A DNA stretch of 59,940 bases, from positions 1 to 59,940 of the forward strand of contig JBEKDJ010000001.1 in the NCBI GenBank assembly GCA_050014415.1, in the 5' to 3' direction. Below, in pieces: positions 32,147 to 50,686 of the stretch. This DNA comes from Thermodesulfobacteriota bacterium (GTDB lineage: Bacteria; Desulfobacterota; BSN033; UBA1163). Every line of letters begins with the position of its first letter. Positions within the stretch are counted from its first letter, which is position 1. The notes below the pieces were generated by a model. It saw only the letters and a program-made list of their open reading frames with translations, did not search any database and was not told the DNA's origin. The translations under genes and the position numbers were made by a program.

Positions 32147-32727
32147 ATGGGCCGTACTTCCTATCTAGTGTCTGACGTGCTATGTCTGAATTCATATGCG
32201 GGGGAGAATGCCACGAAATATGCAGCAGAAATGAAAGAAGAGAAAGGGTATGATGTAGATAGAAGGATAGATGGGGACCTTCTCATTATGGCGAGAACAG
32301 ATTTTCTGTCAGTCTTTAGCCTAGAGGATGCTATTGAGCGGGCCAACAGGTATTGGGAGGCAGGCGCAGATCCCCTATTTGTCGAGGCTCCGACTTCGAA
32401 AGAAGAAATGATAAGAATTAATCACGAGATTAATGCTCCCACCATGGCGATACAGATAGAACAAGGCAGAACGGCTATCCTTACCACAACAGAGTTAGAG
32501 GAGATAGGGTTCAATACAGTGGTCTATCCTGGAACTAGTTTTTTGTTGCCGCTTTTGCAATAAAGAAGGTCATGGAAGAGCTTAACCATAAGGGGACCAC
32601 AACAGGTTTCTTGGACAAAATGATCCTTTTTGATGATCTTAATAGACTCGCGGGTCTAGAGAAGGTCCGGGAGATCGAAGCCTATTATCATAAGGACCTT
32701 TTGAACCAGCAAGGAAGAAACCATTAA
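32147..32727 (+). pseudogene. isocitrate lyase/PEP mutase family remnant (methylisocitrate lyase / carboxyvinyl-carboxyphosphonate phosphorylmutase-like), 5'-truncated and frameshifted
   Basis: DLLIMARTD...AIERANRYWEAGADPLFVEAP...TTELEEIGFNTVVYPG matches only the C-terminal half of the family. A stop at 32561-32563 is followed by the family's C-terminal tail in another frame (32572-32727, MEELNHKGTTTGFLDKM...). Confidence 0.65.
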
Positions 32728-32849: not shown

Positions 32850-33632
32850 ATGAAAAGAGGAATGGAGGGTAGAGTGGCATTGGTGACCGGTGGAGCCTCG
32901 GGCATCGGGAGGGCAACGGCCCAGATGTTTGCCCGAGAAGGGGCGAAGGTCATTGTGACTACCGATTCAAATGTAAAAGGCGGCGAGGAGACGGTCCGAC
33001 TCATTCAGGAAGCCGGGGGCGAAGCGGCTTTTATCCAGTGTGATGTATCGAAGGCAGAAGAGGTTGAGGCAACGGTCAACAAAGGTGTGAAGATCTATGG
33101 GTCACTCGATTATGCCTTCAACAACGCCGGTATCGGTCCCGATGGCAAACGCGTACCGGTTGTCCCAATTGTTGACTGCCCGGAAGAACTCTGGGACCGC
33201 ACGATAAGCGTCAACCTGACGGGGGTCTTTCTTTGCATGAAGTATGAGATGAGGCAGATGCTCAAGCAGAGGTATGGAGCCATTGTGAACTGTTCCTCTG
33301 TTGGAGCCTTTAAGGCAGTGCCCGGCTTTGCAGCATATGACGCAAGTAAAAGCGGATTGTTCGGGCTCACCAAAGCGGCAGCCCTGGAGGGTGCCACCTC
33401 AGGCATCAGGGTCAACGTGATATGCCCTGGTCCTACTTGGCGGACCCTTTTATATGACAATCTGACAAGTGCTCAGCCGGAAATGAAGGAGCAATTGCCG
33501 GAAATAATCCCGATGAAGCGGATGGCCGAACCCGAAGAGATGGCTGAGGCTGTCATCTGGCTCTGTTCAGACGCGGCTTCCTTTGTCACCGGTCACGCCA
33601 TGCCCGTTGACGGTGGTATGACTTCAGCTTGA
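32850..33632 (+). CDS. SDR family oxidoreductase
   Basis: TGGASGIG cofactor motif, NNAG, catalytic Ser and YDASK (YxxxK), C-terminal PVDGG. Confidence 0.9.
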   Translation: MKRGMEGRVALVTGGASGIGRATAQMFAREGAKVIVTTDSNVKGGEETVRLIQEAGGEAAFIQCDVSKAEEVEATVNKGVKIYGSLDYAFNNAGIGPDGKRVPVVPIVDCPEELWDRTISVNLTGVFLCMKYEMRQMLKQRYGAIVNCSSVGAFKAVPGFAAYDASKSGLFGLTKAAALEGATSGIRVNVICPGPTWRTLLYDNLTSAQPEMKEQLPEIIPMKRMAEPEEMAEAVIWLCSDAASFVTGHAMPVDGGMTSA

Positions 33633-33920: not shown

Positions 33921-35273
33921 TTAAATCGGCTTAAGGTATTTCTTCATTATTCTTAGAGCTTTCTCCGGTTCGGATTGGGCAAGCAGACCTGTCGCATACA
34001 TGATGTAGTCTTGGTCAAGATAGAAGTCCGCTCTCCTCGGTTTCAGCAGGCTCCCACTCTCAGAATCAGCGAGGACTCCGCTCAGGATTTCTCTAGGAGA
34101 GGAAGAGCACGTGATGGGACCGCCTGTGCCGATTACGTTGGTCACTTCCGTCAAGTCTTTGCCCACCTGAATGAGCATTTCTCCGTGGGGGCCATAAGCA
34201 ATTTCTAGTTTTCCGACATGCCTCTCAAAGGATGTTTCTACCGCAACACGGGCCAGTTGACCATCCACCGCCATTTCTTTCTCATTTCTTGGAATTCTGC
34301 CTGGGTCAGAGCGGAAGATGGAGACAATCTCTTCGTCCACCGCAATTCCTTTTTTCTTGCAAATTTCCACCAGGGCATCTATATTGTGCCGCACACCAAG
34401 ATCGCCCTCCACGGTTCTTTTTGCGAACGGCTCCGGCAGACCTTTCAAGAATACCACTCCTCTGGTCGGAGTTCCTTGTGCGATGGAATAGACATCCGTC
34501 GTGGCGCCTCCCACATCAATGACGATGATTTCCCCCAGTCCCTCGCCTTCTTTGGCGCCGGTACTGAGGAGGACTGCAGCATTCAATACGGCTACAGGGG
34601 TAGGCATGATGATATTGCTCACCAGTTCCTTGGCCTTGTCTAACCCCTTGGTCTTAACGATGTTCTGCATGAATACTTCTCTTATAGCCTCACGACAAGC
34701 CTGGACTTCCAGTTTTCCTATCTCGGGCATCACATTCTCGACAAACCTTGCCGTCTTAGCTGAGGCGCTGAAAATCTGGCCGATCTTATCATAGGCGCAC
34801 TTATTACCCGCTACGACGATTGGAGCATCTATTTGGGATCGCGACAGAAGACCCGCATTGTGGACGATGGCGCTTTCATTCCCTCCGTTGGTACCGCCGG
34901 CGAGAAGGATAAGGTCTGGAGAGGTTTCCTCTATCTGACTGATCTCCCTGTGAGTAAGTTGATAGCAGTAATGGCCTACCATTTTTGCCCCGGCCCCCAA
35001 AGCAGCTCGCTTGGCTGCCTCGGAGCTAAGCTCGGGTACCAGGCCGATAGAAACCATGCGCAGCCCTCCCGCAGCACTGCTGCACGCGATCATTTCCTTC
35101 GCCTTTGTGCTCCCGATCTTTTCCTCTATCTTTCCTAAAGCATTCTTAAGGCCAATGGTGACGTCCTCTTTGACGGTCGTGGGTGCTTTGGCTGTTGAAA
35201 GAACCAGTTCTTCGTCCAGGTCTATGGCTACCGCCTTAGTAAAGGTGCTCCCTATGTCGATCAACAGCTTCAT
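33921..35273 (-). CDS. glmL: GlmL/MutL-type glutamate mutase accessory protein (ASKHA-fold reactivase/chaperone candidate)
   Basis: MKLLIDIGSTFTKAVAIDL opening, a second phosphate motif VIDVGGATTDV, about 450 aa. The start is ATG 35273 or 35288. Confidence 0.75.
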   Translation of the reverse strand: MKLLIDIGSTFTKAVAIDLDEELVLSTAKAPTTVKEDVTIGLKNALGKIEEKIGSTKAKEMIACSSAAGGLRMVSIGLVPELSSEAAKRAALGAGAKMVGHYCYQLTHREISQIEETSPDLILLAGGTNGGNESAIVHNAGLLSRSQIDAPIVVAGNKCAYDKIGQIFSASAKTARFVENVMPEIGKLEVQACREAIREVFMQNIVKTKGLDKAKELVSNIIMPTPVAVLNAAVLLSTGAKEGEGLGEIIVIDVGGATTDVYSIAQGTPTRGVVFLKGLPEPFAKRTVEGDLGVRHNIDALVEICKKKGIAVDEEIVSIFRSDPGRIPRNEKEMAVDGQLARVAVETSFERHVGKLEIAYGPHGEMLIQVGKDLTEVTNVIGTGGPITCSSSPREILSGVLADSESGSLLKPRRADFYLDQDYIMYATGLLAQSEPEKALRIMKKYLKPI

Positions 35274-35506
35274 GCCCTTCGTCACCATTCTCCCTCATGC
35301 GGAAAGCAACAGAACGCATTCTCCGATCGCGATGCCAAAGCTTGTTTGCCGCTTCTTGTTATGCACGGACATTTACTCTCAGGTCCATTATAGTCCGACT
35401 TTTTTTTATATTTATGATCTAAATCATTGCCGTAATTCAAGGATAACCTATAAAGTAGTGCAAGCTGAATTGCATTGCGAGTGTTTTCGGTTCGAGGTAG
35501 ACTCGG

Positions 35507-37279
35507 ATGATCACAATGCCCAAGGAACTTAGCGACATTATTGGAGCCGCTCTACGTCCCAGAAGGGACGGCGAAGGAAAACTGCTGAGCCTCGACGAGG
35601 CGGTGGGACGTTATGTTAGGCCACGAATGAAACTGCACCTTGCTGCGGGGATTGGAGGACCGAGTGCCGCCATCTGTGAAATCCTCAGGCAATATTCTGG
35701 AAAGACCCCGGAATTTACATTAATTCAAAGCACATTGTCGGGACACGCGCTTAACCTCGTCCATTGCAACCTTGTTAAGAAACTCATCTGCTCAGTCTGC
35801 GCAGACATTTCGGCATCCGGACGGCCCAGCAGGATCATCCAAAGGGCCTACGGAGACAACACAATTCAATTAGAGAATTGGTCCCTTTGTTCGCTTCAGC
35901 AGAGACTCATGGCAGGTGCCCTCGGTGTTCCCTTCCTGCCGACGAGGTCTGTTCTTGGCAGCAGTATTGCCTCTGATAACAAGGAATCTTTCAGAGAAAT
36001 GGAAGATCCTTTTGGGTCTGAAGAGAAGGTTGGCATTGTAGAGGCTCTTAACCCCGATATTTCCATCATCCACGGATGTGTGGGGGATTTGGAAGGAAAC
36101 ATCATTCTGTCCTCTCCCTATGGTGAAGATCTGTGGGGTCCTCTGGCAAGCAGCAACGGAGTCTTGGCGACAGTAGAGAAGATTGTTCCTACCGAATTCA
36201 TAAAGAAATACTCGGCCCTGGTCAAAATCCCGGGCTGTGTTGTCAACGCCGTGTGTGTGGCTCCTTTGGGTTTGCATCCCTTCTCGCTCCCTAACCCGGG
36301 TATCACCGACTTTGATCCTTATGAAAAAGACATTGATTTCTTGAACGAGCTCCATGGGGCATCAAAGAGCGAAAGCACCTTGGACGGCTGGATAAAGGAA
36401 TGGGTCACAGACTGTGCCACACACCAACACTACCTGGACAAATTGGGACAGGGCAGAATAACAAGCCTAAAAGAGAAATCGAAGGACTCAAGAAGCAGAG
36501 TCATGTCAGCTTCCATTCCACAGTCTGAATCGCGAAAAGAAATTGATTCCGATGAAATGATGCTCATCGCCCTATCCAGAGAAATTGTGAACAGCGTGCG
36601 GACCCACGGGCACAGACTGATCCTTGCAGGAGCCGGCACTCGCGGCATCGCAGCATGGTTAGCCTACTACCAGCTTAAGACTGAGGAGTGTGAAATTGAG
36701 CTGATTACAGGAAACGGACAAATTGGCTACCTGCCACTTCCAGGGGAATCGATACTTTCAAGTGAGGCTAGCGTGCGAAGCTCGAAGATGCTGACCGATA
36801 CCATCACGACGCAAGGGGTCTTTGTTGGAGGAAAGAACAACAAGTGTCTCAGCGTGCTGGGTGCAATTCAGATCGATAAATACGGGAACATCAACTCGAC
36901 AATGACTTCTACGAGACAGTTTCTAATGGGTTCTGGTGGGGCAAACGATGCCATGAATGCCCGAGAGGTGATTGTGGCCCTCGATCAATCAAAGGATCGC
37001 TTTGCAGAAGAACTTCCCTATATCACAGGCCGGGGTAAGGCGGTAACTACTGTCGTATCAACGATGGGCATTTTCAAAAAACCAAGCCCCCAGGAGGAAC
37101 TTCATCTTGTCGCATGTTTTCCGAGCGCACAGCCGACGAGCGTGAGAGAAAAGGTAAAGGAAGTTCAGGATCGTTGTGGATGGCCCCTGAAGTTGGCGTC
37201 TCAGATTAAGGAGATATCCAAACCGAGTCAGGGGGAGTTGGATCTGCTTCGGTGGCTTCTCTCCTCACCTTCGTCTTAG
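35507..37279 (+). CDS. fused alpha+beta family I CoA-transferase-like protein (glutaconate/3-oxoacid CoA-transferase fold), catalytic Glu not conserved
   Basis: 590 aa. The N-terminal half is GctA/AtoD-like and the C-terminal half AtoA-like (GAIQIDKYGNINST, MGSGGANDA). The SENG motif position reads TGNG (36707-36718). Confidence 0.8.
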   Translation: MITMPKELSDIIGAALRPRRDGEGKLLSLDEAVGRYVRPRMKLHLAAGIGGPSAAICEILRQYSGKTPEFTLIQSTLSGHALNLVHCNLVKKLICSVCADISASGRPSRIIQRAYGDNTIQLENWSLCSLQQRLMAGALGVPFLPTRSVLGSSIASDNKESFREMEDPFGSEEKVGIVEALNPDISIIHGCVGDLEGNIILSSPYGEDLWGPLASSNGVLATVEKIVPTEFIKKYSALVKIPGCVVNAVCVAPLGLHPFSLPNPGITDFDPYEKDIDFLNELHGASKSESTLDGWIKEWVTDCATHQHYLDKLGQGRITSLKEKSKDSRSRVMSASIPQSESRKEIDSDEMMLIALSREIVNSVRTHGHRLILAGAGTRGIAAWLAYYQLKTEECEIELITGNGQIGYLPLPGESILSSEASVRSSKMLTDTITTQGVFVGGKNNKCLSVLGAIQIDKYGNINSTMTSTRQFLMGSGGANDAMNAREVIVALDQSKDRFAEELPYITGRGKAVTTVVSTMGIFKKPSPQEELHLVACFPSAQPTSVREKVKEVQDRCGWPLKLASQIKEISKPSQGELDLLRWLLSSPSS

Positions 37280-37427
37280 GCAATGGGTGGAGGAGCATGT
37301 CCCAGGAAGTCCGGGCCGGACATTGTCTGACGGCGGCAGCTTGTAAAAACTCTCGTGACAGATTATTCTCCTAATAGGCAGGTGATTTGACCCCAGCCCA
37401 TGATAATCAGCTAAGAAGGAGATATTT

Positions 37428-38651
37428 ATGAGCGGCCCCTTACGAGGTGTTCGGGTTATAGAATGTGCCGGGTATCTGAGCGCTCCGACAGCCTGTTACA
37501 TGCTGGGTGACCTAGGAGCCGAAATCATTAAGGTGGAGGATAGAGAAAAGGGGGACCCTGCCCGTGGAACATCGGCTCTCTTCGGTACGTCCATGTCTTT
37601 GCCGGACGGAGGCAATATTCTGTTTGAAACGGCCAACCGAAATAAGAAAAGCATCACCCTCGACCTGAAAAAGGAGAAAGGGAGAAAGATCCTCTATCAG
37701 CTGGTTGAATTATCGGAAGTATTTTGTACAAACTTTTCCCAATCAGCGATTGGCAATCTGCAGATTGACTACCAAACCCTGAGCAAGTACAATCCAAAGC
37801 TGATCTATGGGGTTGCGACAGGATACGGGTTGTTAGGGCCCGACAGTAACAAACGAGCTTTCGACAGTATTGCGCAGGCCCGATCCGGAATGATGTATGC
37901 CGCGGGTGGGGACCCCGATGCCCCTCCGTCTCAGATCGGGGGACCGATATTTGATCAGATGACCGGGACTCTTCTGGCCTATGCAATACTGGCTGCGCTT
38001 GTGGCCAAAGATAGGCAGGGGATTGGGCAACAGGTAGAGGTGTCGTTGCTCGGTTCGGCCATACATTTGCAGGCCTACAACATTAATACGGCATTGCTAC
38101 GAGGGCGTCAGATTCCAAGGCCTTCGAGGCGAACATTGAAAAACCCGATGGCCAACCATTACGAGTGTGCCGATGGAGAATGGCTGCTGCTGTCAGAGGC
38201 CCAGTCAGATAGATTCTGGCACAACTTCTGCGTCGCGCTGGGCATTGAGCATCTGGAAAAGAATGAGAAGTTTGCAGACGCTGCCAGAAGGCGTGACAAT
38301 TTCCGGGAGCTCACCGGAATCATTGAAGAAGTCTTCAAGACGAAGAAAAGAGGTGAGTGGATAGCGATTCTGAATGAGAAAGGCGGTGGCCTTGCGTTTT
38401 CACCCGTTCTGAAACCTACCGATCTCTCCTCGGACCCACAAGTGGTACAAAATGACTATATCGTCGAGGTTGACCATCCTTCGCTGGGTCGAATCAGTGT
38501 GATAGGCAATCCAGTCAGTTTCACTGGAACGCCCGTACACATCGACGGCTATGCGCCTCAGTTTGGACAGCATACGGAAGAGGTATTGCTGGATGTGTGT
38601 GGCTACTCCTGGGAACAAATACAGGAATTGAAGGATGAGGAAGTGATTTAG
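37428..38651 (+). CDS. family III (CaiB/BaiF) CoA-transferase, paralogue 3
   Basis: 407 aa. VIECAGYLSAPTACYMLGDLGAEIIKVE, AFDSIAQARSG, catalytic Asp motif PIFDQMTGTLLAYAILAAL. Confidence 0.85.
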   Translation: MSGPLRGVRVIECAGYLSAPTACYMLGDLGAEIIKVEDREKGDPARGTSALFGTSMSLPDGGNILFETANRNKKSITLDLKKEKGRKILYQLVELSEVFCTNFSQSAIGNLQIDYQTLSKYNPKLIYGVATGYGLLGPDSNKRAFDSIAQARSGMMYAAGGDPDAPPSQIGGPIFDQMTGTLLAYAILAALVAKDRQGIGQQVEVSLLGSAIHLQAYNINTALLRGRQIPRPSRRTLKNPMANHYECADGEWLLLSEAQSDRFWHNFCVALGIEHLEKNEKFADAARRRDNFRELTGIIEEVFKTKKRGEWIAILNEKGGGLAFSPVLKPTDLSSDPQVVQNDYIVEVDHPSLGRISVIGNPVSFTGTPVHIDGYAPQFGQHTEEVLLDVCGYSWEQIQELKDEEVI

Positions 38652-38672
38652 GGCTCGGAGAAGGAGGAATAG

Positions 38673-40136
38673 ATGGAGCCTAAGATCAGGAATAAACGGA
38701 TAGACGAAGACAGGTTCTTGAAAATGAGGGAGCCAGTCCTTGCTCTTTGGCCGACTGGCAAGGAAGTGGATCTCGATGAGGCGATTGAGTATCAGAAGAA
38801 CCTACCTGAGACCAAGAGCTTCTTAAAAGTGATTGAAAGACTCCATCGAGAAGAGAAAACAGTCGTCTTCCCGAGGGCAGGAACGCCGATTCTGGAGGAT
38901 CAGATAAGTCTCTGCAAAAACCTGGAGAGATCGGGAGTTCCGTTCATACCGGTAACAACGGATAGTTACACGCGCTTGCTCCAGTTTAAGAAGGTTGAGG
39001 AGGCGCTTGAGGAGAGCATCAGGACCGCCAAACCAATGCTCAATGGGTATCCTCTTATCAACCATGGGGTAAAAAAGACAAGGAAAGTGATTGAAAGCGT
39101 GAGTGAAGGTGCCTTTGACCCGAGGCTATCGCGTCTGTCCTATCCCCTGGCATCGGAAATTGCCTTTGCCTCAGGGATGACGGGAATTGCGGCCAGTCCG
39201 TTTATCTCATTCGGTGCTTACGAAAAGACTTGTACCCTTGAGGAGTCGATGGCCCAGTGTCAGTACGTTCAGAGGCTGGTCGGGTACTATGCGGATCGGG
39301 GCGTTATCATCACGACCGATAACCACGGATGGATTCCCACCGGTGTCTTCCCGTTGAGCGTCAATCTGGCGACCATGATCGTCGACGCCCTTACCTGTGC
39401 GGAGCAGGGTGTGAAGAGCATTGTCCCGTTGGTTCACAGCATGGGAAACCTTGCTCAGGATCTGGCTTGGATCAGGGTCACGCCGCGATTGATGAGGGAG
39501 TACCTTGACAGATTCGCCTATAAGGACGTGGTCATTCCAGGTAATTTTGCCGCTCAGACGCCGCTCTATCCGATGCCCCAGGGGCTGGGAGGGGCCTTTG
39601 CGTTTCTCAACTATACCGCCGTGCTGGCTGCGCTGGGGAAGGTGGAGTCAGTATTCCTCAGGACAATCGACGAGGGTGCGGGTGTCCCGACGGAAGAGGC
39701 TCATGCACTCAGTTACACATCAGCCAACTGGCTTTTCAATGTGATCAGGGGACAGAAGATCGAATTTGAGATGAAAGGGGTGGATGAGGAAGAGAGAATA
39801 GCAGAAATGGAAATCAGGGCTATTCTGGACAAACTTCTGGAGATAGGAGACGGTGATATCATTGTTGGGTCCACCCGGGGGGTTGAAGCTGGAATGATCG
39901 ATTCGTCCTTCAGCCCGAACAGGACGGTAAGGGACTTGGTCCTCGGAGTGAAAGACAGTAAAGGCGCAGTCCGTTATGCGGAGTTTGGAAATCTTCCCCT
40001 GCCCAAAGAGGCCAAGGAATTCCATCGCCAGAAGCTGGCAGAGAGGGCGAAAGAAGAGGGAAGAAAAATGGATTATGTTGTCACGGTTGAGGATTTCTGG
40101 TCCTTTAGCAAGGGACACCTGATCGGGAAACCGTAA
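38673..40136 (+). CDS. glmE: methylaspartate (glutamate) mutase E-subunit homologue
   Basis: 487 aa, collinear with clostridial GlmE as I remember it (WPTGKEVDL, PRAG, DSYTR, LNGYP, RYAEFGNLP, KGHLIGKP). The central substrate-pocket segment is divergent. Confidence 0.85.
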   Translation: MEPKIRNKRIDEDRFLKMREPVLALWPTGKEVDLDEAIEYQKNLPETKSFLKVIERLHREEKTVVFPRAGTPILEDQISLCKNLERSGVPFIPVTTDSYTRLLQFKKVEEALEESIRTAKPMLNGYPLINHGVKKTRKVIESVSEGAFDPRLSRLSYPLASEIAFASGMTGIAASPFISFGAYEKTCTLEESMAQCQYVQRLVGYYADRGVIITTDNHGWIPTGVFPLSVNLATMIVDALTCAEQGVKSIVPLVHSMGNLAQDLAWIRVTPRLMREYLDRFAYKDVVIPGNFAAQTPLYPMPQGLGGAFAFLNYTAVLAALGKVESVFLRTIDEGAGVPTEEAHALSYTSANWLFNVIRGQKIEFEMKGVDEEERIAEMEIRAILDKLLEIGDGDIIVGSTRGVEAGMIDSSFSPNRTVRDLVLGVKDSKGAVRYAEFGNLPLPKEAKEFHRQKLAERAKEEGRKMDYVVTVEDFWSFSKGHLIGKP

Positions 40137-40183
40137 TAGGTCCTATGTGCCCCATAGGATCTATTAGAAGGAGGATGGTGATC

Positions 40184-40606
40184 ATGAAAAGTCCGACAGT
40201 GATCACAGGCACAGTAGGTATGGATGCTCACGTCATTGGCACCAAAATACTATCCCGTGCTTTACGGGAGGCTGGTTTCAACGTCGTGGAGCTGGGAATC
40301 TTGACTCCTCCGGAGGAGTTTATTCAAGTCGCCATCGAAACAAATGCGGATGCGATCTTAATGAGCTCCCTTTACGGCATGGCCGAGCTAGATGTAAGGG
40401 GATTCAAGGAGAAGTGCGTCGAAGCGGGGCTCGAAAATGTGCTGCTTTACATCGGCGGTATCCTTGGCGTGGGCAGGCACGATTTCAAAGAGGATGAAAT
40501 CAAATTCAAAAGGCTGGGCTTCGACAGGGTCTATCCGCCCGAGGTGGATCTCAAGGGGCCCATTGCAGATCTCTGGACAGACTTGAAGGCCAAAGGGAAG
40601 GCTTGA
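40184..40606 (+). CDS. glmS: methylaspartate mutase S-subunit homologue (B12-binding)
   Basis: DxHxxG base-off/His-on motif (MDAHVIG), ILMSSLYG, LLYIGG. Start placed at ATG 40184, 9 nt after GGAGG; the track start is 40145. Confidence 0.9.
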   Translation: MKSPTVITGTVGMDAHVIGTKILSRALREAGFNVVELGILTPPEEFIQVAIETNADAILMSSLYGMAELDVRGFKEKCVEAGLENVLLYIGGILGVGRHDFKEDEIKFKRLGFDRVYPPEVDLKGPIADLWTDLKAKGKA

Positions 40607-40616
40607 GGTTTGTGAG

Positions 40617-41864
40617 ATGCAAAGAAGGAGAATGTTAGAAGGCTGCCGCGCACTAGACTTGACAGACGAAAAAGGATTTCTGTGCGGCAAGATCCTTGCC
40701 GACCTGGGCATGGATGTTATCAAGGTCGAAAGACCGGGCGGGGACCCATCCCGAAGGCTCGGCCCGTTCTGGAACGATCAAGCTGACCCGGAGAAGAGTC
40801 TCTACTGGTTTGCTTACAACAGTGACAAGCGTGGGATCACCCTCGACATCGAATCAAAAGACGGGAAGAGGATCTTTGAAGAACTGGTCAGGAAATCGGA
40901 CGTTGTCATCGAGTCCTTCAAACCCGGTTATCTAGACAAGCTGGGATTGGGGTATGCTGCATTGAGCGGGATCAAGAAAGAGATCATCGTAACGTCCATA
41001 ACACCCTTCGGTCAGACGGGTCCTTACAGCAGCTATGAGGCGTCTGACATCGTGCTTATGGGAATGGCAGGAGAGCTCTTCCTGACCGGCGAGGGGGACC
41101 GTCCGCCGTTGAACATTAGTGTACCGCAGGCCTGTCTCCATGCGGGTGCGGATGCAGCAGTGGGCACAATGATCGCGTACCACCATAGAAGGAAGACCGG
41201 AGAAGGGCAGCACGTCGATGTGTCGATGCAGCAAAGCGCCGCGTGGTTCCTGGCCTTCACCGTGCCCTACTGGGAGATCGACAAGGTCATCCTGGGCAGG
41301 GTAGGTCCTTTCAGAAGAAGCAGCAGCAGCGGCACCGTACAACGACAGGTGTGGCCGTGCAAGGACGGTTACGTCTTCTTCTACATGATGGGAGGTCAGC
41401 AGGGCGCAAGGCAGTGCCGCCCGCTGGTTAGATGGATGGAAGAGGAGGGGGCGGGTGACGAGTTCCTCCGGACCTTTGAGTGGGAGCGCTTCGACATGCC
41501 GACGGCCACCCAGGAACTCATAGACAAAATCTCGAAGCCCATCGCCGATTTCTTCCTCACCCGGACGAAGATAGAGGCCCTGGATGCCGCAGCATCGAGA
41601 AACATTCCCATCTGCCCGCTCTTGGGCATGCAGGACATACTCGACGATCCAAACCTCTCGGTGAGGGGGTACTGGTCCCAACTCGAATACCCAGAGCTGA
41701 ATGTAACCATCCCCTACCCGAAGCAGTTTGTGAGGTCTTCTGAGAACGAGGTGTCGACTGGTTTCAGGGCGCCGCTTATCGGCGAACACAACGCCGAGGT
41801 TTATGGTGAGATCGGATTCTCTCGACATCAAATTGTGGCCTTGAAAGAGGCAGGGGTGATCTAG
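40617..41864 (+). CDS. family III (CaiB/BaiF) CoA-transferase, paralogue 4
   Basis: 415 aa. ALDLTDEKGFLCGKILADLGMDVIKVE. Catalytic Asp motif HAGADAAVGTMIAY. Confidence 0.85.
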   Translation: MQRRRMLEGCRALDLTDEKGFLCGKILADLGMDVIKVERPGGDPSRRLGPFWNDQADPEKSLYWFAYNSDKRGITLDIESKDGKRIFEELVRKSDVVIESFKPGYLDKLGLGYAALSGIKKEIIVTSITPFGQTGPYSSYEASDIVLMGMAGELFLTGEGDRPPLNISVPQACLHAGADAAVGTMIAYHHRRKTGEGQHVDVSMQQSAAWFLAFTVPYWEIDKVILGRVGPFRRSSSSGTVQRQVWPCKDGYVFFYMMGGQQGARQCRPLVRWMEEEGAGDEFLRTFEWERFDMPTATQELIDKISKPIADFFLTRTKIEALDAAASRNIPICPLLGMQDILDDPNLSVRGYWSQLEYPELNVTIPYPKQFVRSSENEVSTGFRAPLIGEHNAEVYGEIGFSRHQIVALKEAGVI

Positions 41865-42036
41865 CACCAAGTTGCATTGAAGCTGCAACTCTGGGCAGAG
41901 ATCAAGGCCGAGGTTAAGATCAGATCACAAGCATTTTCATCAGCTCAACTTAAGCCCTAGCCTTTGATTGCTTGCCAGCATCACACATAATGGAGGGAAG
42001 ACGTGTAGATGTTAGCCAGAAGGAAGTGAGAAACAA

Positions 42037-42600
42037 ATGAGTGGCCACACTCGATTCGAGAAGCTGCTTGAGCCAGGTTATATCGGGTCGGTAAAGACCA
42101 GGAACCGGATCATAAAAACCGGTGCGGGAATGCTCATGTGGCACAAGGACGACGTCCACATGAGGGAAGAGGTAAAGGCTTTCTACGAAAGGATGGCCAG
42201 GGGCGGAGTGGGGCTGCTCATCGTAGAGTCGCCCACCATCGATTATCCTCTGGGCGCGCGCTGGAGGCAACGCTATCGCATCGACGATGACAAATACATT
42301 GAAGGTCTCGGAAAACTGGTTGAGGTCGTCCATAAACACGGCTGTCCCACTTTAATCAGTGAGGTCAAGGAATATGTAGAGATAACGGGCAAGGGGCTCA
42401 CCATTATCAATAAAGAAGGAGAAAGGCAGGTCATCGAGGCCGATACCGTCCTAACCGTCCTGCCGTTGACGCCCAATATGGGGCTGGTGAAGAGCCTGAA
42501 AGGAAAGGTTTCCGAGGTCTACGGCATTGGCGACTGCAAGGAGCCCCATTTGATAGCGGATGCCATCGGCATCAGCCTCCGGACCGCTCGCGCCGTCTAG
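42037..42600 (+). pseudogene. internally deleted OYE-type 2-enoate/2,4-dienoyl-CoA reductase remnant
   Basis: The first 105 aa or so are the start of an OYE TIM barrel (IGSVKTRNRIIKTGAG...ARGGVGLLIVE...VHKHGCPT). This joins directly to the last 80 aa or so of the FAD/NAD(P) domain (VYGIGDCKEPHLIADAIGISLRTA). About 450 aa are missing relative to the intact paralogue at 54333-56222. Confidence 0.6.
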
Positions 42601-42652
42601 GAGCGGTGCCCTCAGTATCAGTCATTAAAACTTCGATGTCTTAGAGGGAAGC

Positions 42653-43870
42653 ATGGAGAACAGAGTATTTTCGGATCTCAAAATTGTCGCTTTCAGCACG
42701 GCCATGGTGGGTCCATTGACACTCAAGTTCTTCGCCGACTATGGCGCGACAGTCATCAGGGTGGAAACGAGCACCCGCCCGTGTGCTACGAGAACATCTT
42801 CTCCTTTCAAAGACGGGAAGCCGGGTCTCAACAGAAGCGGTTATTTCAATCACTTCAGCGCAAATATGATGAGCATGTCTCTCAACATGTCCCATCGCCT
42901 CGCCCTGGGTCTTGCGAAGGAACTCATAGCGCAGTCCGACGTAGTAATGGAGAACTTCACGCCGCAGATCATGGATCGATGGGGTCTTGGTTACGAGGAG
43001 CTGAGGAAGATAAAGCCTGACATCATCATGGTCCGGCAGAACGGTTTCGGCTCGGATGGTCCTTACAGGAACCTGGCTGCCTTCGGCATGACACTGGCTG
43101 CAATTGCCGGGATACCCAATTTCATAGGCTGGGCTGACCGCGGGCCACTGCCGGTAGGTGTAGGTGCATATACCGACTGCATCAGCCCGCGGCTTGCATC
43201 TGCTGCTCTCATTGCGGCCCTTGACTATCGTGGCAGGACTGGCAAGGGCCAACTCATAGAGCTATCCCAGTTTGAAACGGCGCTTTACTTTGTGCTGCCG
43301 GGGCTTCTCGACGCGGCAGTGAACGGTAGGGAGCCGGTCAGAAACGGAAACGCGGTAGCCTATGCTGCTCCACATAACGTCTATGCGTGCAAAGGGAAGG
43401 AGCGGTGGTGTACGATTGCCGTCCTCAATGACACCCATTGGGTAAGGTTGTGCGAGGCTATGGGCAAGCCGGAACTGGCTGGTGATGCACGGTTCGACAC
43501 CTTCCTGAGTCGGAAAGAGCATGAGACAGAACTCGATGAGTTGATCAGGGGGTGGACGGCCCACTATACGGCGGAGGAGGTAACGGCCCGGCTCCAGGGT
43601 GCTGGTGTGCCTGCCGGCGTGGTGGAGAACGCAGCTGACCTCTATGAGGATCCCCAGTTAAGACAGCGTGGCCTCTTGTGGCGTATAAACCACGCCGAGA
43701 TGGGACCATTCACCCATTTGGGCGCGAGTATGCAATTGTCAAGAACACCCGCGCAGGCTTACAGGCCAAGTCCCTGTCTGGGTGAACATACCGAATATGT
43801 CTTAACCAAGATACTAGGAAAGACGGATGAGGAGTTTGTGGAGCTTCTGGGAGCAGGGGTGCTGGAGTGA
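42653..43870 (+). CDS. family III (CaiB/BaiF) CoA-transferase, paralogue 5
   Basis: 405 aa. VAFSTAMVGPLTLKFFADYGATVIRVE. Catalytic Asp motif AYTDCISPRLASAALIAAL. Confidence 0.85.
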   Translation: MENRVFSDLKIVAFSTAMVGPLTLKFFADYGATVIRVETSTRPCATRTSSPFKDGKPGLNRSGYFNHFSANMMSMSLNMSHRLALGLAKELIAQSDVVMENFTPQIMDRWGLGYEELRKIKPDIIMVRQNGFGSDGPYRNLAAFGMTLAAIAGIPNFIGWADRGPLPVGVGAYTDCISPRLASAALIAALDYRGRTGKGQLIELSQFETALYFVLPGLLDAAVNGREPVRNGNAVAYAAPHNVYACKGKERWCTIAVLNDTHWVRLCEAMGKPELAGDARFDTFLSRKEHETELDELIRGWTAHYTAEEVTARLQGAGVPAGVVENAADLYEDPQLRQRGLLWRINHAEMGPFTHLGASMQLSRTPAQAYRPSPCLGEHTEYVLTKILGKTDEEFVELLGAGVLE

Positions 43871-43927
43871 GAAGGGTTTTAGGTGCCAGTGTGAAGAGTC
43901 TGATCAATCTCTTTGGAGGAAAAAGTC

Positions 43928-44794
43928 ATGGAATATGAATATGTCTTGTACAAAAAGGAAGGGCAAGTTGCTTATATTACGTTAAACAGGCCCGAAAGGC
44001 TGAATGCAGTGTCTCCGGAATTGGTCCGCGACTGGTCGGCTGCAATGACCGAAGCAGAGGACGATGAAGATGTCAAGGTCATCGTCTTCAAGGGTGCTGG
44101 TCGGGCCTTCAGCGCAGGAGCAGATCTGACAGGGGTTGGATTTGTCTATGGCATGAAGGAGCCCAAGCCGGGTGAGAAGGGTGGTCGAGTCCCTTTACGG
44201 GTAAAGCTGAAATTCGATAGAAACCTATTTCTGGAATTTCACAGGAAAGTCCTGCTGTGCCCAAAACTGACGATTGCCCAGATGCACGAATACTGTCTGG
44301 GGATTGCCTTCAACATCGTGCTCCACTGTGATCTGCTCATTGCGAGTGAAGACTGTAAGGTGGGTCACGTTGAAGAGAGGTTAGGCCAGGGAGGCATGAC
44401 GATTTCGCCGATCATGGTTTTGAGATGTGGATTAACGAGGGCCCTGGACCTGTGTCTTACGGGTAAGATGATTGACGGGAAGAAGGCAGCAGAATGGGCT
44501 CTTGTCAATAGGGCAGTGCCTAAGGAGATTCTTGATGATGAGGTTCGGGAGCTTGCAAATGGACTGGCTCTCTATCCCAAAGATGGTATTGCTGTTGGTA
44601 AGGTAGCGAGACACATGCTATATCAAACAATGGGTGTGGAAAAGGGGTTAGTGGATCATTTCATTATGCACACTCTTCAAACAAATAAGGTCTATGACCC
44701 AGGGGAGTTTAACTTCTTTAAACAGAGAAGGGACAAAGGAGTGAGGGACGCCGCCCATGAAAAGCACGACCTATTTAAGGCTCTGGATAAATGA
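43928..44794 (+). CDS. crotonase-superfamily (enoyl-CoA hydratase/isomerase family) protein
   Basis: YITLNRPERLNA, FSAGADL oxyanion region. The active-site segment CLGIAFNIVLHCDLLIASEDCKVGHVEERLG has Asn at the first catalytic Glu position and keeps the second Glu. Start at ATG 43928 after GGAGGA. Confidence 0.85.
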   Translation: MEYEYVLYKKEGQVAYITLNRPERLNAVSPELVRDWSAAMTEAEDDEDVKVIVFKGAGRAFSAGADLTGVGFVYGMKEPKPGEKGGRVPLRVKLKFDRNLFLEFHRKVLLCPKLTIAQMHEYCLGIAFNIVLHCDLLIASEDCKVGHVEERLGQGGMTISPIMVLRCGLTRALDLCLTGKMIDGKKAAEWALVNRAVPKEILDDEVRELANGLALYPKDGIAVGKVARHMLYQTMGVEKGLVDHFIMHTLQTNKVYDPGEFNFFKQRRDKGVRDAAHEKHDLFKALDK

Positions 44795-44833
44795 CGCATA
44801 AGGCAGGATGACTATCGGCAGGAGGTTAAAAGT

Positions 44834-46213
44834 GTGGATGCAACGTACTTATTTGCAAAGAATCTGACAAATATTCGATATGAAGACCTTCCCCCAGGAG
44901 TCGTGGAGGCGACAAAAAAGCAGGTTCTCGATCTGTTGGGTGTTGCAGTCGGTGGCTTTTCCAAACCCGGGCCGAAGGAGCTGCGAGAAATCGTAACAGA
45001 TTGGGGAGGTAAAGAGGAGAGCAGCATTATTGGCTGCACACAGAAGTTCCCGGCACCCAATGCGGCACACGTGAACGCGACCATGGCCCATGCCCTCGAT
45101 TATGATGATGTCCACGAGACGGCCATCATGCATTCAGGCGTTGCTATTATACCAACGTGCATAGCAATGGCCGAGTGTCGAGGCAATGTAAGCGGTAGGG
45201 AGCTAGTTGCAAGTATTGCCTTGGGGGTAGATATGATGTGCAGGCTGGCATTAGCCACCACCCCAGGAACCCGCCCTCTCAACACCGGCTGGCATCTCAC
45301 GACGCTGTATGGTTTCTTGGGTGCGGCTGGTACTGCTGCAAGAATGTTGAGGCTCGATGAAGGGGGAATCCTAAATGCCCTTGGAATTGCGTATCACCAG
45401 TGCAGCGGGAATGGGCAATGTGTCATTGATGGCGCATTAACCAAAAGGATGGGACCTGGATTTTCGGTGAAGGGGGGTATTACTGCCGCCCTGCTTGCTG
45501 AAAAGGGTGTGAGTGGGGCTAAGAACTGCCTGGAAGGAGAGTGGGGTCTGTACAAGCTCTACCACCGTGGAAATTACAATGCCAAAGCCTTGACGATGGA
45601 TTTGGGAGAAACCTTTGAGGGGATTAACGTTGCCATAAAACCATACCCTTGTTGCAGAGGCGTTCATCCCGCGATCGATGCTGCCCTAGCCCTGGTAGAT
45701 GAACACAACATCAAGGCTGAAGACGTGCAGAAAATCACACTGTCTGTGAGCGAGGGGCACTATCATTTACTCTGTGAGCCTGAAGATGCGAAGCTCAAAC
45801 CCCGGAACCCGGTGGATGCGCAGTTCAGCATACCTTGGGGAGTGGCGACCGCGATTGTCAGGAAGGGAGTCACCCTGGAACATTTTACGGAAGCAGCCGT
45901 CAAGAGCCAAGACATCCTCGGGGTCGTTAACAAGATGAGCATAGAGCAGGATACCAGCCTAAATCGGTCAGAAAAGATTGAACCCACCCGGGTGAAGATA
46001 AGAACGAAAGAAGGGAGTGTTTATTCCAAAGAAGTGGAAGATCCCTTGGGTAGCCTCGAAAGACCTATGTCGTTCGATGACTGTGCCAGGAAATTCAGGG
46101 ATTGTGCGAAGCAGCTGCGGGACGAACAAGCAGATAGGGTGATAGAACTGATTGGAAGGCTCGAGCGGCTTAACGACATCAGAGAGATAATCAAACCGCT
46201 CAGCCTGGGGTAA
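44834..46213 (+). CDS. MmgE/PrpD family protein (2-methylcitrate dehydratase-like)
   Basis: 459 aa, GTG start. Typical family length and motifs (ATMAHALDYDDVH, GWHLT, YHQCSGN, IKPYPCCR). Confidence 0.85.
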   Translation: MDATYLFAKNLTNIRYEDLPPGVVEATKKQVLDLLGVAVGGFSKPGPKELREIVTDWGGKEESSIIGCTQKFPAPNAAHVNATMAHALDYDDVHETAIMHSGVAIIPTCIAMAECRGNVSGRELVASIALGVDMMCRLALATTPGTRPLNTGWHLTTLYGFLGAAGTAARMLRLDEGGILNALGIAYHQCSGNGQCVIDGALTKRMGPGFSVKGGITAALLAEKGVSGAKNCLEGEWGLYKLYHRGNYNAKALTMDLGETFEGINVAIKPYPCCRGVHPAIDAALALVDEHNIKAEDVQKITLSVSEGHYHLLCEPEDAKLKPRNPVDAQFSIPWGVATAIVRKGVTLEHFTEAAVKSQDILGVVNKMSIEQDTSLNRSEKIEPTRVKIRTKEGSVYSKEVEDPLGSLERPMSFDDCARKFRDCAKQLRDEQADRVIELIGRLERLNDIREIIKPLSLG

Positions 46214-46307
46214 GTTTCGACGGCCCTCTCGACCAGGCGACCCTGGCCGGGAAGTGCAAACAAGTAGGACAGGAGTTAGAATTCGTATTGTAAGGAGGCG
46301 TCAGAAA

Positions 46308-47069
46308 ATGGCGGAAGGGTTTGAGGGAAAGGCAGTGCTGGTAACCGGAGGAGGCTATGGGATAGGTCGGGCAGCGGCCTTAGGCTTTGCTCGGAGGGGG
46401 GCAAAAGTCGCGGTAGCAGACATAGACATCAAGAATGGGAAAGAAACCGTTCGCCGTATCAAAGAGGCGGGAGGTGATGCGGTTTTCGTGAAGGCCGACG
46501 TGTCACAGGAGGCTGAGGTCGAAGCCCTTATTAAGAAAACCGTCGAAACTTACGGCAAGCTAGACTGCGCCTTCAACAATGCGGGTATTCACAAGGTGTT
46601 TGTCTCCACCGTCGACTTCACTGAAAAGGACTGGAATGAAATGATCGACATCAACCTCAAAAGCGTATGGCTCTGTATGAAATATGAAATCCCCGAGATG
46701 CTGAAACAGGGCAAAGGAGCCATCGTTAATACGTCGTCGGCAGCAGGTTTGATCGCCGCGCCGAGCAACCCTGCCTATCCCGCGAGCAAGCACGGGGTTG
46801 TGGGATTGACAAAATCGACTGCCGTGGAGTTTGCGAGGAGGGGCATCCGGGTCAATTGCGTCTGCCCTGGCCCCACACGGACAGGAATGCATGACAGCTT
46901 GGTGGCCATTGCTCCACAAATCGTTGAGGCGATGAATATGAAGGTGCCGATGGGGCGGATAGCCGAGCCCGAAGAGGTTGCTGCAGCTGCCGTCTGGCTC
47001 TGCTCAGACGAGGCCTCCTATATTACGGGTCACGCCCTGCCCGTAGATGGCGGTCTGGTAGTGGATTGA
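46308..47069 (+). CDS. SDR family oxidoreductase
   Basis: TGGGYGIG, NNAG, YPASK (YxxxK), PVDGG. ATG 46308 is preceded by AAGGAGG; the track start at 46254 is an unlikely extension. Confidence 0.9.
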   Translation: MAEGFEGKAVLVTGGGYGIGRAAALGFARRGAKVAVADIDIKNGKETVRRIKEAGGDAVFVKADVSQEAEVEALIKKTVETYGKLDCAFNNAGIHKVFVSTVDFTEKDWNEMIDINLKSVWLCMKYEIPEMLKQGKGAIVNTSSAAGLIAAPSNPAYPASKHGVVGLTKSTAVEFARRGIRVNCVCPGPTRTGMHDSLVAIAPQIVEAMNMKVPMGRIAEPEEVAAAAVWLCSDEASYITGHALPVDGGLVVD

Positions 47070-50681: not shown

Positions 50682-50686
50682 ACCTA

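Follow-up and report, generated by a model that had tools for sequence, protein, structure and literature searches.

A conserved gene cluster around a GlmE-like B12 mutase that probably serves the breakdown of a small dicarboxylic acid other than glutamate

What does a glutamate-mutase-like gene set do when it is surrounded by CoA-transferase genes and lacks methylaspartate ammonia-lyase (methylaspartase)? The question is raised by a 59,940-nucleotide stretch of DNA from a Thermodesulfobacteriota bacterium, referred to here as the window, for which a complete GlmE/GlmS/GlmL set had been predicted. A profile search of the window confirmed the genes for GlmL, the GlmE-like protein and GlmS at or near the coordinates originally given, and the DxHxxG motif of GlmS is intact, reading D-A-H-V-I-G.

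Results and Discussion

Gene content of the locus

The mutase genes lie in a co-directional array that is longer than first described, reaching position ~57786 (Table 1); glmL is divergent from this main array. As predicted, family III CoA-transferase genes bracket the GlmE/GlmS pair, with gaps of 21 bp from CaiB_1 and 10 bp to CaiB_2, and a crotonase, an MmgE/PrpD protein and two SDRs were found nearby by profile search.

Table 1. Predicted features of the mutase locus. Positions are those of the window.
Feature	Position	Strand	Evidence
Two neighbouring family III CoA-transferase genes	27828-29024, 29024-30265	minus	PF02515 339 and 287 bits
MFS_3 transporter	30506-32134	plus	PF05977 535 bits
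Methylisocitrate-lyase/PEP-mutase family fragment, pseudogene remnant	32147-32563	plus	profile positions 136-223 of 240 only
SDR1 oxidoreductase	32850-33632	plus	PF13561 229 bits; synteny
GlmL, mutase accessory (reactivating chaperone-type) protein	33921-35288	minus	PF13941 543 bits; NF040745 577 bits (cut-off 475)
GctA-like + GctB-like fused protein (family I-like fusion)	35507-37279	plus	PDB matches to 1POI chains
CaiB_1, family III CoA-transferase	37428-38651	plus	SUGCT 9BR6_A 173 bits, Asp aligned
GlmE-like catalytic subunit, adenosylcobalamin carbon-skeleton mutase	38673-40136	plus	PF06368 432 bits
GlmS B12-binding subunit	40145-40606 (other start 40184)	plus	NF002612 190 bits (cut-off 110); 1I9C_A 146 bits
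CaiB_2, family III CoA-transferase, BbsE-like	40617-41864	plus	9FN0_A 233 bits
OYE/Fe-S/FAD reductase remnant (2,4-dienoyl-CoA reductase or enoate reductase type)	42037-42600	plus	tblastn
CaiB_3, family III CoA-transferase, BbsF-like	42653-43870	plus	PF02515 322 bits
Crotonase-fold enzyme	43913-44794	plus	PF00378 110 bits
MmgE/PrpD family protein	44834-46213	plus	PF03972 + PF19305
SDR2 oxidoreductase	46254-47069	plus	NF004818 348 bits (cut-off 336); synteny
Flavocytochrome-c/fumarate-reductase-type flavoprotein (FAD_binding_2)	47473-48945	plus	Pfam
NuoF-like protein	49014-50681	plus	Pfam
2Fe-2S/4Fe-4S/GltD-like protein	50687-52807	plus	Pfam
Second FAD_binding_2 flavoprotein	52851-54299	plus	Pfam
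Full-length OYE/FAD reductase	54333-56222	plus	Pfam annotation of identical contig; tblastn
MatE exporter, last gene of co-directional array	56371-57786	plus	Pfam annotation of identical contig

The first pair of CoA-transferases in Table 1, neither of which reached NCBIfam equivalog level in the profile search, stands at the edge of the island, and its membership of the pathway is uncertain. The MFS_3 transporter gene has no counterpart in related loci and lies beside the cluster in this genome only. Two neighbours are clearly degraded. The lyase fragment, which has a counterpart in none of 80 related loci, scores 86 bits on TIGR02317 (cut-off 354), and the OYE remnant carries an in-frame deletion of residues 111-618 that joins residues 2-110 to 619-701 (tblastn), where relatives hold a gene of ~700 aa. 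The full-length OYE is 30% identical to an orthologue of the deleted gene (tblastn). Such damage could mean that the whole cluster is a decaying, non-functional remnant. However, no damage is seen in the mutase genes or in any core partner, which show 53-89% identity across phyla and keep their cofactor motifs. The partners are of catabolic enzyme types and no NRPS or PKS genes were found near the cluster, which also argues against biosynthesis of a branched natural-product building block; decay and biosynthesis together are very improbable explanations.

Absence of methylaspartase

In agreement with the original prediction, a tblastn probe for methylaspartase, identical to PDB 1KCZ, matched neither the window nor any of 88 related loci (1.38 Mb in all) at E<1. 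Against a canonical control locus of the order GlmS-GlmL-GlmE-MAL, in which the lyase is adjacent, this probe reached 535 bits. The 80 species-level relatives (Acidobacteriota, Dehalococcoidales, Syntrophorhabdaceae and others) were likewise free of a methylaspartase gene up to 10 kb from the mutase. Neither a thiolase nor a citramalyl-CoA-type lyase was found in the cluster.

Active site and clade of the GlmE-like protein

Aligned to 1CCW and 6H9E, the GlmE-like protein retains Arg66, Arg100, Arg149 and Tyr181, and it has Ala for Glu171, Leu for His150 and Ile for Asn170; Gly172 and Gly173 of Clostridium GlmE are Ala and Ser in the window loop. For Glu171 and the arginines we adopt the functions published for the Clostridium enzyme. 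Of 83 clade members, 80 carry all of Arg-Arg-Arg-Tyr and none has His150; at position 171, 69 of the 83 have A, G, P, S or N. The enzyme lacks the residues that hold the amino group of glutamate, so its substrate is probably another small dicarboxylic acid. The loop reads Gly/Ala-Ile/Val-Ala-Ala-Ser/Cys in the window's subclade. In sister subclades the loop carries Lys172, Asn or even Glu171, so polar substituents are likely for at least some clade members.

The GlmE-like protein sits in a clade of its own. Of 1.84 billion representatives scanned in full, two fell in this clade, at 544 and 541 bits, with the next score at 349 bits. Clade members share 53-78% identity with each other and 33-40% with Clostridium GlmE. 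The three arginines occur together with Glu171 and His150 in 26 of 111 full-length representatives. Among these 26 are the ones nearest to Clostridium GlmE and the ones whose N-terminal extension matches a B12-binding domain in size.

These data bear on whether this is an ordinary glutamate mutase with its methylaspartase and mesaconase genes elsewhere in the genome. GlmS and GlmL score above NCBIfam methylaspartate-mutase equivalog cut-offs, and IMG names GlmE relatives "methylaspartate mutase epsilon subunit". However, the GlmE-like protein itself scores 366.9 bits on TIGR01503, under the equivalog cut-off of 390.1, and the replacement of Glu171 and His150, the gap of nearly 200 bits around its clade and the lack of a lyase within 10 kb in all 80 species, unlike the control, make this explanation most unlikely. 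Its residues, score and separate clade set the protein apart from true glutamate mutases. The methylaspartate cycle in a bacterial form, also raised originally, is unlikely because an alpha-amino acid should not fit the enzyme and the lyase is never adjacent in the loci searched.

Conservation of the operon

The order Gct-like, CaiB, GlmE, GlmS, CaiB, OYE, CaiB, crotonase, PrpD, SDR, and with it the CaiB-GlmE-GlmS-CaiB arrangement singled out in the original prediction, recurs in ~20 Acidobacteriota species and a delta-proteobacterial MAG; in Dehalococcoidales the operon recurs with rearrangements. This near gene-for-gene recurrence in other phyla argues that the arrangement is not due to chance. 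In related loci CaiB_1 is always paired with the Gct-like gene, and in Dehalococcoidales the CaiB_3 orthologue directly adjoins that of CaiB_2. Synteny shows the MmgE/PrpD protein to be the most widely retained partner of the mutase clade. SDR1 orthologues (73-77% identity) adjoin the mutase in Dehalococcoidales, and SDR2 orthologues (75-79% identity) are found in Acidobacteriota clusters. Nearly all cluster variants include C=C reductase-type flavoproteins: OYE genes in Acidobacteriota, FAD_binding_2 genes in Dehalococcoidales and both types in the window. Redox-module genes also lie beside the mutase in loci L057 and L058 and in Actinomycetota loci; the window's module scores 386 bits on the VprA model (cut-off 600) and 184 bits on TcuA. 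Loop type at residues 166-181 goes with operon type. No published account of the operon was found in the searchable literature.

CoA-transferases and the Gct-like protein

CaiB_1 is nearest to human succinyl-CoA:glutarate/hydroxymethylglutarate CoA-transferase (SUGCT) and keeps the catalytic Asp. CaiB_2 is nearest to benzylsuccinate CoA-transferase chain A (second match 153 bits); IMG names its relatives BbsE and those of CaiB_3, its probable partner, BbsF. The family I-like CoA-transferase fusion is present as predicted, with best PDB matches to 1POI_A (78.6 bits) and 1POI_B (32-37 bits) and further matches to AibA 5MZW and IpdA 6CO6, but its catalytic glutamate is lost, all 30 orthologues reading TGNG in place of SENG. 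The protein probably has no transferase activity and is a candidate glutaconyl-CoA-type decarboxylase or retro-Claisen hydrolase.

The BbsEF relationship of CaiB_2 and CaiB_3 could instead indicate a bulky 2-substituent (alkyl, aryl-alkyl or alicyclic) and a substituted succinate degraded by benzylsuccinate-type beta-oxidation. The task of the mutase would then be to reshape the succinyl part, the crotonase and SDR would be analogous to BbsH and BbsCD, and the Gct-like protein would replace thiolase as an IpdAB-like retro-Claisen hydrolase, consistent with its match to IpdA. Syntrophorhabdaceae and a delta-proteobacterial MAG carry several paralogous mutase copies per genome whose loops differ from copy to copy, which also favours this alternative. 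It is nonetheless unlikely: Ala and Ser for Gly172 and Gly173, and Ile for Asn170, tend to make the pocket smaller, not larger, CaiB_1 is nearest to a short-chain dicarboxylate transferase, and no fumarate-adding glycyl radical enzyme was found in the window or close loci.

Crotonase and PrpD-family enzymes

The predicted crotonase gene is present, but its product keeps a single hydratase glutamate of the usual two; motif conservation among 40 orthologues has Asn for the first Glu and the second kept. Among its neighbours in the PDB are 3-hydroxypropionyl-CoA dehydratase and HCHL, and it appears hydratase/lyase- or isomerase-like. The MmgE/PrpD protein has its best PDB matches in B. subtilis IRG1 (130 bits), IDS epimerase and cis-aconitate decarboxylase, and scores 34-45 bits on PrpD equivalog models, far under their cut-offs.

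The constancy of this partner favours an alternative in which C2 bears a polar, non-amino substituent. The mutase would convert 2-hydroxyglutarate to 3-methylmalate (or use the 2-oxo analogue), the PrpD-family enzyme would dehydrate 3-methylmalate to mesaconate or citraconate on the model of PrpD with 2-methylcitrate, structurally a 2-substituted 3-methylmalate, and transferases, crotonase and SDR would handle the product. Clostridial glutamate mutase slowly rearranges 2-hydroxyglutarate, and both the SDRs, conserved at 73-79% identity, and the polar loop residues of some subclades are consistent with such a route. However, the loop of the window's subclade offers a hydroxyl no obvious hydrogen-bond partner, and the PrpD homologue falls nearest the IRG1/IDS-epimerase/cis-aconitate-decarboxylase branch, with low PrpD equivalog scores. 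We consider this alternative improbable.

Proposed pathway

We favour, with moderate confidence, a non-glutamate GlmE/GlmS-type mutase that would interconvert a free-acid 2-substituted glutarate and a 3-methylsuccinate, served by side-specific CoA-transferases. The glutarate-/methylsuccinate-type interconversion proposed originally fits both the loss of amino-binding residues with retention of the arginines and the SUGCT-like upstream and BbsE/BbsF-like downstream transferases. Of the earlier interpretation, the mutase set, the absence of methylaspartase and the skeleton idea are supported, and the methylaspartate cycle and the family I transferase are not. We infer the substrate class from sequence and gene neighbourhood, and likewise the individual transferase roles and the direction of flux.

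The free dicarboxylate would be bound by the conserved three-arginine claw, with a small, uncharged position beside C2, and would undergo a reversible 1,2-shift to the matching 3-methylsuccinate, the substituent being H, methylene or methyl. Candidate pairs are glutarate / methylsuccinate, 2-methyleneglutarate / 3-methylitaconate and 2-methylglutarate / 2,3-dimethylsuccinate. We know of no precedent among B12 mutases for migration of an unactivated carboxymethyl group, as in the first pair; the shift is chemically easier if C2 is sp2 or bears a heteroatom. The other pathway steps would run on CoA thioesters and the mutase on the free acid, which would account for one CoA-transferase per side in the operon. 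On the glutarate side, CaiB_1 would act with the Gct-like protein, which lacks the transferase glutamate and would probably decarboxylate a glutaconyl-CoA-type intermediate or cleave a beta-keto thioester. On the substituted-succinate side, the BbsE/BbsF-like heteromer would be followed by the one-glutamate crotonase, the PrpD-family enzyme and an SDR. Enoate/fumarate-reductase- and OYE-type flavoproteins would add or remove a C=C bond, with electron input from the NuoF/GltD-like module.

The cluster is conserved among uncultured anaerobes from five or more phyla, and its sequences suggest that it probably encodes a breakdown pathway not yet described, built around a B12 mutase for another small dicarboxylic acid.

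Genes of the B12 mutase cluster

All of the genes that the original prediction assigned to a glutamate-mutase-like cluster were recovered by ORF listing and profile searches of the window, a contig of a Thermodesulfobacteriota MAG, and they are listed in the table with the genes lying beyond them. From position 35507 on, the genes share one direction and are tightly spaced, with gaps of 21 bp and 10 bp flanking the GlmE/GlmS pair, and this co-directional array continues past the end point of the prediction. Upstream of about 26 kb the window holds housekeeping genes (DnaE, MutL, GuaA and GuaB). Between an MFS transporter gene and the first short-chain dehydrogenase gene, SDR1, lies a 138-amino-acid fragment of the methylisocitrate-lyase/PEP-mutase family (32147-32563), which covers profile positions 136-223 only and has no counterpart among the 80 related loci. 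No B12 riboswitch or other Rfam family reached the gathering threshold in the window, and over the stretch from 32.5 to 48 kb promoter- and terminator-like sites were no more numerous than in shuffled sequence.

Features of the mutase cluster and of its downstream extension
Feature	Position	Strand	Profile match or remark
SDR1 (short-chain dehydrogenase)	32850-33632	+	PF13561; PRK06172-type
GlmL	33921-35288	minus	NF040745 577 bits, cut-off 475
Gct-like (fused family I-like CoA-transferase homologue)	35507-37279	+	PF01144
CaiB_1 (family III CoA-transferase)	37428-38651	+	PF02515
GlmE-like	38673-40136	+	PF06368 432 bits
GlmS	40145 or 40184 to 40606	+	DAHVIG motif; NF002612 190 bits, cut-off 110
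CaiB_2 (family III CoA-transferase)	40617-41864	+	PF02515
CaiB_3 (family III CoA-transferase)	42653-43870	+	PF02515
Crotonase	43913-44794	+	PF00378
MmgE/PrpD protein	44834-46213	+	PF03972 and PF19305
SDR2 (short-chain dehydrogenase)	46254-47069	+	PF13561; PRK06172-type
Flavocytochrome-c/fumarate-reductase-type flavoproteins (n=2)	47473-48945 and 52851-54299	+	array extension
NuoF-like protein	49014-50681	+	array extension
2Fe-2S/4Fe-4S/GltD-like protein	50687-52807	+	array extension
Full-length OYE/FAD reductase	54333-56222	+	array extension
MatE exporter	56371-57786	+	array extension

Active site and family placement of the mutase

The window shares with the GlmES and GlmL proteins of Clostridium cochlearium and C. 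tetanomorphum (1CCW, 1I9C, 6H9E) a two-subunit layout and a GlmL helper. Both subunits are present, a GlmE-type catalytic subunit and a GlmS with the DxHxxG motif. The GlmE-like protein is 35% identical to Clostridium GlmE over its full length, and GlmS matches its counterpart with 146 bits. In the Clostridium enzyme three arginines hold both carboxylates of the substrate, and Glu171 holds its amino group. Alignment of the window protein to C. cochlearium GlmE (1CCW and 6H9E; Clostridium numbering) showed that Arg66, Arg100, Arg149, Tyr181 and Glu330 are kept. Unlike the Clostridium enzyme, the window protein has Ala in place of Glu171, Leu in place of His150 and Ile in place of Asn170, so that the signature His150 ... 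E-GG-I-YN-PY is absent, and the stretch TSNEGGG-ISYN of Clostridium GlmE is replaced by TGIAASPFISFG. It scores 366.9 bits on the subunit E equivalog model TIGR01503, below the cut-off of 390.1, and is annotated by NCBI as hypothetical.

The window protein falls in a clade of its own, whose members are 53-78% identical to it and 33-40% identical to the Clostridium enzyme. A full scan of 1.84 billion representatives gave scores of 544 and 541 bits, followed by a next score of 349 bits, and the clade is well separated in sequence. The window protein has the three-arginine claw (Arg66, Arg100 and Arg149), as do 80 of the 83 clade members; none of the 83 has His150.

These substitutions were set against the superfamily in a census of 111 full-length PF06368 representatives of 50%-identity clusters, drawn from proteins P0121-P0270. 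Only 26 have the three arginines together with His150 and Glu171; they include the representatives closest to Clostridium GlmE as well as N-terminally extended forms in which the extension is the size of a B12-binding domain. Another 23 keep the arginines and have lost both Glu171 and His150, and in 52 at least one claw arginine is gone as well. Judged by this active-site signature, most metagenomic clusters of the GlmE family are not glutamate mutases, and the superfamily holds a large uncharacterised diversity of putative B12 mutases.

Conservation of the operon and absence of methylaspartase

Relatives of the window protein were found in 80 species-level genomes, all of them MAGs, from Syntrophorhabdaceae, 'delta proteobacteria', Acidobacteriota, Dehalococcoidales, Actinomycetota, Moorellales and two Betaproteobacteria. 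When the ORFs of these relatives were compared against the window proteins, the order Gct-like, CaiB, GlmE, GlmS, CaiB, OYE, CaiB, crotonase, PrpD, SDR was seen nearly gene for gene in about 20 Acidobacteriota and in one delta-proteobacterial MAG. Dehalococcoidales carry the cluster in two rearranged versions, and the Actinomycetota version is centred on PrpD, SDR and flavoproteins. G+C lies at 0.46-0.50 in the upstream housekeeping region of the window and climbs from about 0.47-0.48 to 0.52-0.54 over the catabolic island (about 26000-54000); this shift, together with the spread of the operon across phyla, hints that the island was acquired by transfer.

The original prediction had noted the lack of a methylaspartase and asked whether the arrangement would recur without one. 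Both points are borne out. Neither the window nor any of 88 loci (1.38 Mb) gave a match at E<1 to a methylaspartase probe identical to PDB 1KCZ, and among these loci the arrangement recurs in the neighbourhoods of the closest GlmE homologues with methylaspartase never adjacent. In a canonical control locus with a Glu171-type GlmE, in the order GlmS-GlmL-GlmE-methylaspartase (MAL), the probe scored 535 bits. Because the amino-group ligand is missing, the equivalog score is below its cut-off and the association with the lyase is absent, the window mutase is, on its sequence, not a glutamate mutase (methylaspartate mutase, EC 5.4.99.1). The literature searched yielded no description of the clade or of the operon. 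The finding is real and not an artefact.

An ORF of about 900 amino acids in a Rubrivivax locus (L024) had the appearance of a CaiB-GlmE fusion. tblastn placed the two genes at 8760-9980 and 10001-11455, in frames that differ. The apparent length of the ORF comes from an upstream extension through high-GC DNA, and it is not evidence of coupling.

The loop formed by residues 166-181 follows operon type in its sequence, which suggests that several related specificities may exist within the clade.

Variant clusters and additional copies

A distant mutase subclade, with the loop TAMPNSF-FGW, occurs in Actinomycetota and a Bacillota MAG (L048:5297-14223, L050 and L045:17-10323). Beside it stand genes for a dehydratase/lyase-class glycyl radical enzyme and for the activase of this enzyme, together with a PrpD-family gene and the hydantoinase/acetone-carboxylase-like genes HyuA and HyuB; enzymes of the B12 radical and the glycyl radical type are thus found in one cluster. 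We considered whether the L048 glycyl radical enzyme is of the fumarate-adding type; it groups with HypD and sulfopropanediol dehydratase, and not clearly with benzylsuccinate synthase. An enzyme of this kind is absent from the subclade of the window. The version in Gaiellales/Thermoleophilia (L083:90-13861 and L074) consists of an IclR regulator, PrpD, HyuA, HyuB with an acetone-carboxylase gamma-like tail, an SDR, a tungsten-type aldehyde:ferredoxin oxidoreductase, GlmE-like, a second SDR, an FAD_binding_2 flavoprotein and an ABC binding protein. In these two loci GlmE-like has no separate GlmS detected next to it.

Several genomes carry more than one copy. One delta-proteobacterial MAG (L006, L011, L015, L023) has at least five GlmE-like copies with differing active-site loops. 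A Syntrophorhabdaceae contig (L009/L085) has two intact GlmE-GlmS pairs in tandem and a third copy split into two ORFs, and in that MAG a further GlmE-like gene is an orphan, lacking a GlmS in its vicinity (L086).

Partner enzymes

PF02515 scores 263-358 bits on the three transferases of the array; the catalytic Asp was checked by residue for CaiB_1 only. The nearest match to CaiB_1 is human succinyl-CoA:glutarate/hydroxymethylglutarate CoA-transferase (SUGCT; 9BR6, 173 bits), with the catalytic Asp aligned to that of SUGCT. Its constant companion is the Gct-like gene, the two halves of which match GctA and GctB of glutaconate CoA-transferase, and also AibA and IpdA, subunits of a methylglutaconyl-CoA decarboxylase and of a ring-opening hydrolase, respectively. 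In family I CoA-transferases the catalytic glutamate of the beta-subunit motif S-E-N-G forms the enzyme-CoA thioester. All 30 orthologues examined, like the window protein itself, read T-G-N-G here, with Gly in place of Glu, an assignment of moderate confidence from a low-scoring alignment. On account of this replacement the Gct-like protein is probably not a transferase. It would share this feature with AibAB (3-methylglutaconyl-CoA decarboxylase) and IpdAB (steroid ring-opening hydrolase), which have the Gct fold without the catalytic glutamate of the beta subunit; the fold of the Gct-like protein itself is seen from its matches to 1POI, 5MZW and 6CO6. Unlike these two, it is a single fused polypeptide, and it is distant from AibA and IpdA (at most 39 bits).

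The best structural match of CaiB_2 is benzylsuccinate CoA-transferase chain A (9FN0), at 233 bits; the next structure scores 80 bits lower. Members of its cluster are named BbsE in IMG and relatives of CaiB_3 are named BbsF; orthologues of the two stand side by side in Dehalococcoidales. This fits a heteromeric transferase that would act on a substituted succinate.

The crotonase has Asn in place of the first catalytic glutamate (Glu144 in rat), a position taken by N, S, T or D in orthologues, and the second (Glu164 in rat) is kept in 38 of 40, the motif having been assigned by eye against the known consensus. With its one glutamate, the crotonase is more reminiscent of hydratase/lyases and isomerases than of plain hydratases. 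The PrpD-family protein is the most constant partner across the whole clade. Its nearest structures are IRG1, IDS epimerase and cis-aconitate decarboxylase (90-130 bits), and it reaches 34-45 bits on the PrpD equivalog models, against cut-offs of 458-950, and so is not placed with 2-methylcitrate dehydratase. Orthologues of SDR1 and SDR2 in Dehalococcoidales and Acidobacteriota (L014, L059, L066) are 73-79% identical, compared with 55-69% for the mutase in the same loci; since SDR identity exceeds mutase identity, the SDRs may carry a strongly constrained step.

Relatives have a gene for an OYE/Fe-S/FAD reductase of about 700 amino acids between the BbsE- and BbsF-like genes. The 187-aa ORF at this place in the window (42037-42600) might be taken for a conserved small protein. 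It is instead a deletion remnant: tblastn showed residues 2-110 of the Acidobacteriota orthologue joined to 619-701, with an in-frame deletion of residues 111-618. The same deleted form is present in contigs of three other samples (L002-L004). Downstream of the remnant, a distant full-length OYE paralogue and two flavoproteins of the VprA/fumarate-reductase type, with the NuoF-like and 2Fe-2S/4Fe-4S/GltD-like proteins, form a redox module (47473-56222). The module looks like an NADH-linked, perhaps also ferredoxin-linked, C=C reductase system. In two Chloroflexota loci (L057, L058) the mutase is directly preceded by the NuoF/GltD/flavoprotein trio.

Comparison with known pathways

In the haloarchaeal methylaspartate cycle (GlmES, methylaspartase, succinyl-CoA:mesaconate CoA-transferase, mesaconyl-CoA hydratase), a GlmES-type mutase is joined by a CoA-transferase of family III and by an enzyme for enoyl-CoA hydration of a branched C5 dicarboxylate (PMC5592240), and the window holds enzymes of the same three kinds. 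The original prediction considered a bacterial variant of this cycle, which is unlikely. Unlike the cycle, the window lacks methylaspartase and Glu171 and has a crotonase instead of a MaoC-type hydratase, and its transferases score 159-186 bits on the mesaconate-transferase model, with a cut-off of 700. The system is not the methylaspartate cycle.

The second likeness is to beta-oxidation of benzylsuccinate (BbsEF, BbsG, BbsH, BbsCD, BbsAB). In the bbs operon a crotonase and an SDR come after the BbsEF transferase genes, an order also seen behind CaiB_2 and CaiB_3 in the window. Unlike that pathway, the window has no acyl-CoA dehydrogenase, thiolase or benzylsuccinate synthase, and its operon carries insertions, namely a B12 mutase and a PrpD-family protein. 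It thus borrows benzylsuccinate-type transferases without the remainder of the pathway.

To our knowledge, the only other B12 mutase acting on a free non-amino C5-type dicarboxylate is 2-methyleneglutarate mutase (Mgm, EC 5.4.99.4) of nicotinate fermentation in Eubacterium barkeri. It converts 2-methyleneglutarate to 3-methylitaconate and has a GlmL-like helper, MgmL. Some clade members are E-S fusions of 641-656 amino acids, a layout similar to that of single-chain Mgm. Judged from annotation, the window ORFs belong to families other than those of the remaining nicotinate-pathway genes of E. barkeri. The system would work like glutamate mutase and 2-methyleneglutarate mutase.

A proposed route between linear and branched dicarboxylates

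The gene order can be read as three blocks: a glutarate side (Gct-like and the SUGCT-like transferase), the mutase, and a substituted-succinate side made up of the BbsEF-like pair, crotonase, PrpD and SDR. The mutase would carry out a 1,2-rearrangement of the free acids between a 2-substituted glutarate and a 3-methylsuccinate, with CoA taken off on one side and restored on the other, probably via succinate and succinyl-CoA. The arrangement of the blocks fits such a free-acid rearrangement. Because the pocket beside C2 is small and uncharged in the subclade of the window, H, methylene or methyl is favoured as the C2 substituent there; polar or bulky substituents are real alternatives, above all in the sister subclades. 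The rearrangement of 2-methyleneglutarate to 3-methylitaconate has precedent, and the unsubstituted case, glutarate to methylsuccinate, would be new chemistry.

We offer as possible rather than probable the proposal that the enzyme catalyses a reaction never described for a B12 mutase, acting on an unactivated C5 dicarboxylate (glutarate to methylsuccinate) or on some other non-amino, non-methylene 2-substituted glutarate. An anaerobic route, widespread and unrecognised, would have this reaction as its key step and would join linear to branched dicarboxylates in Acidobacteriota, Dehalococcoidales, Syntrophorhabdaceae and Actinomycetota; the sister subclades, with their differing loops, would each convert one of a set of related substrates.

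Fewer than ten carbon-skeleton mutase reactions of adenosylcobalamin are known to us, and only two of these act on free acids. A separated clade with the dicarboxylate claw and without the amino-group ligand is thus a concrete candidate for a new reaction. Its operon includes two atypical enzymes, a Gct-like protein without the catalytic Glu and a one-glutamate crotonase, and suggests a testable design principle, that of a free-acid mutase with one CoA-transferase per side. The relevance to the fields of B12 enzymes and anaerobic carbon metabolism is considerable, the operon being kept in at least five phyla of abundant, uncultured anaerobes of soil, peat and sediment. The relatives are labelled 'methylaspartate mutase epsilon subunit', 'benzylsuccinate CoA-transferase BbsE/BbsF' and '2-methylcitrate dehydratase PrpD' by public pipelines. 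Read literally, such names would lead metabolic reconstructions of these MAGs astray, towards glutamate fermentation, toluene degradation and a methylcitrate cycle.
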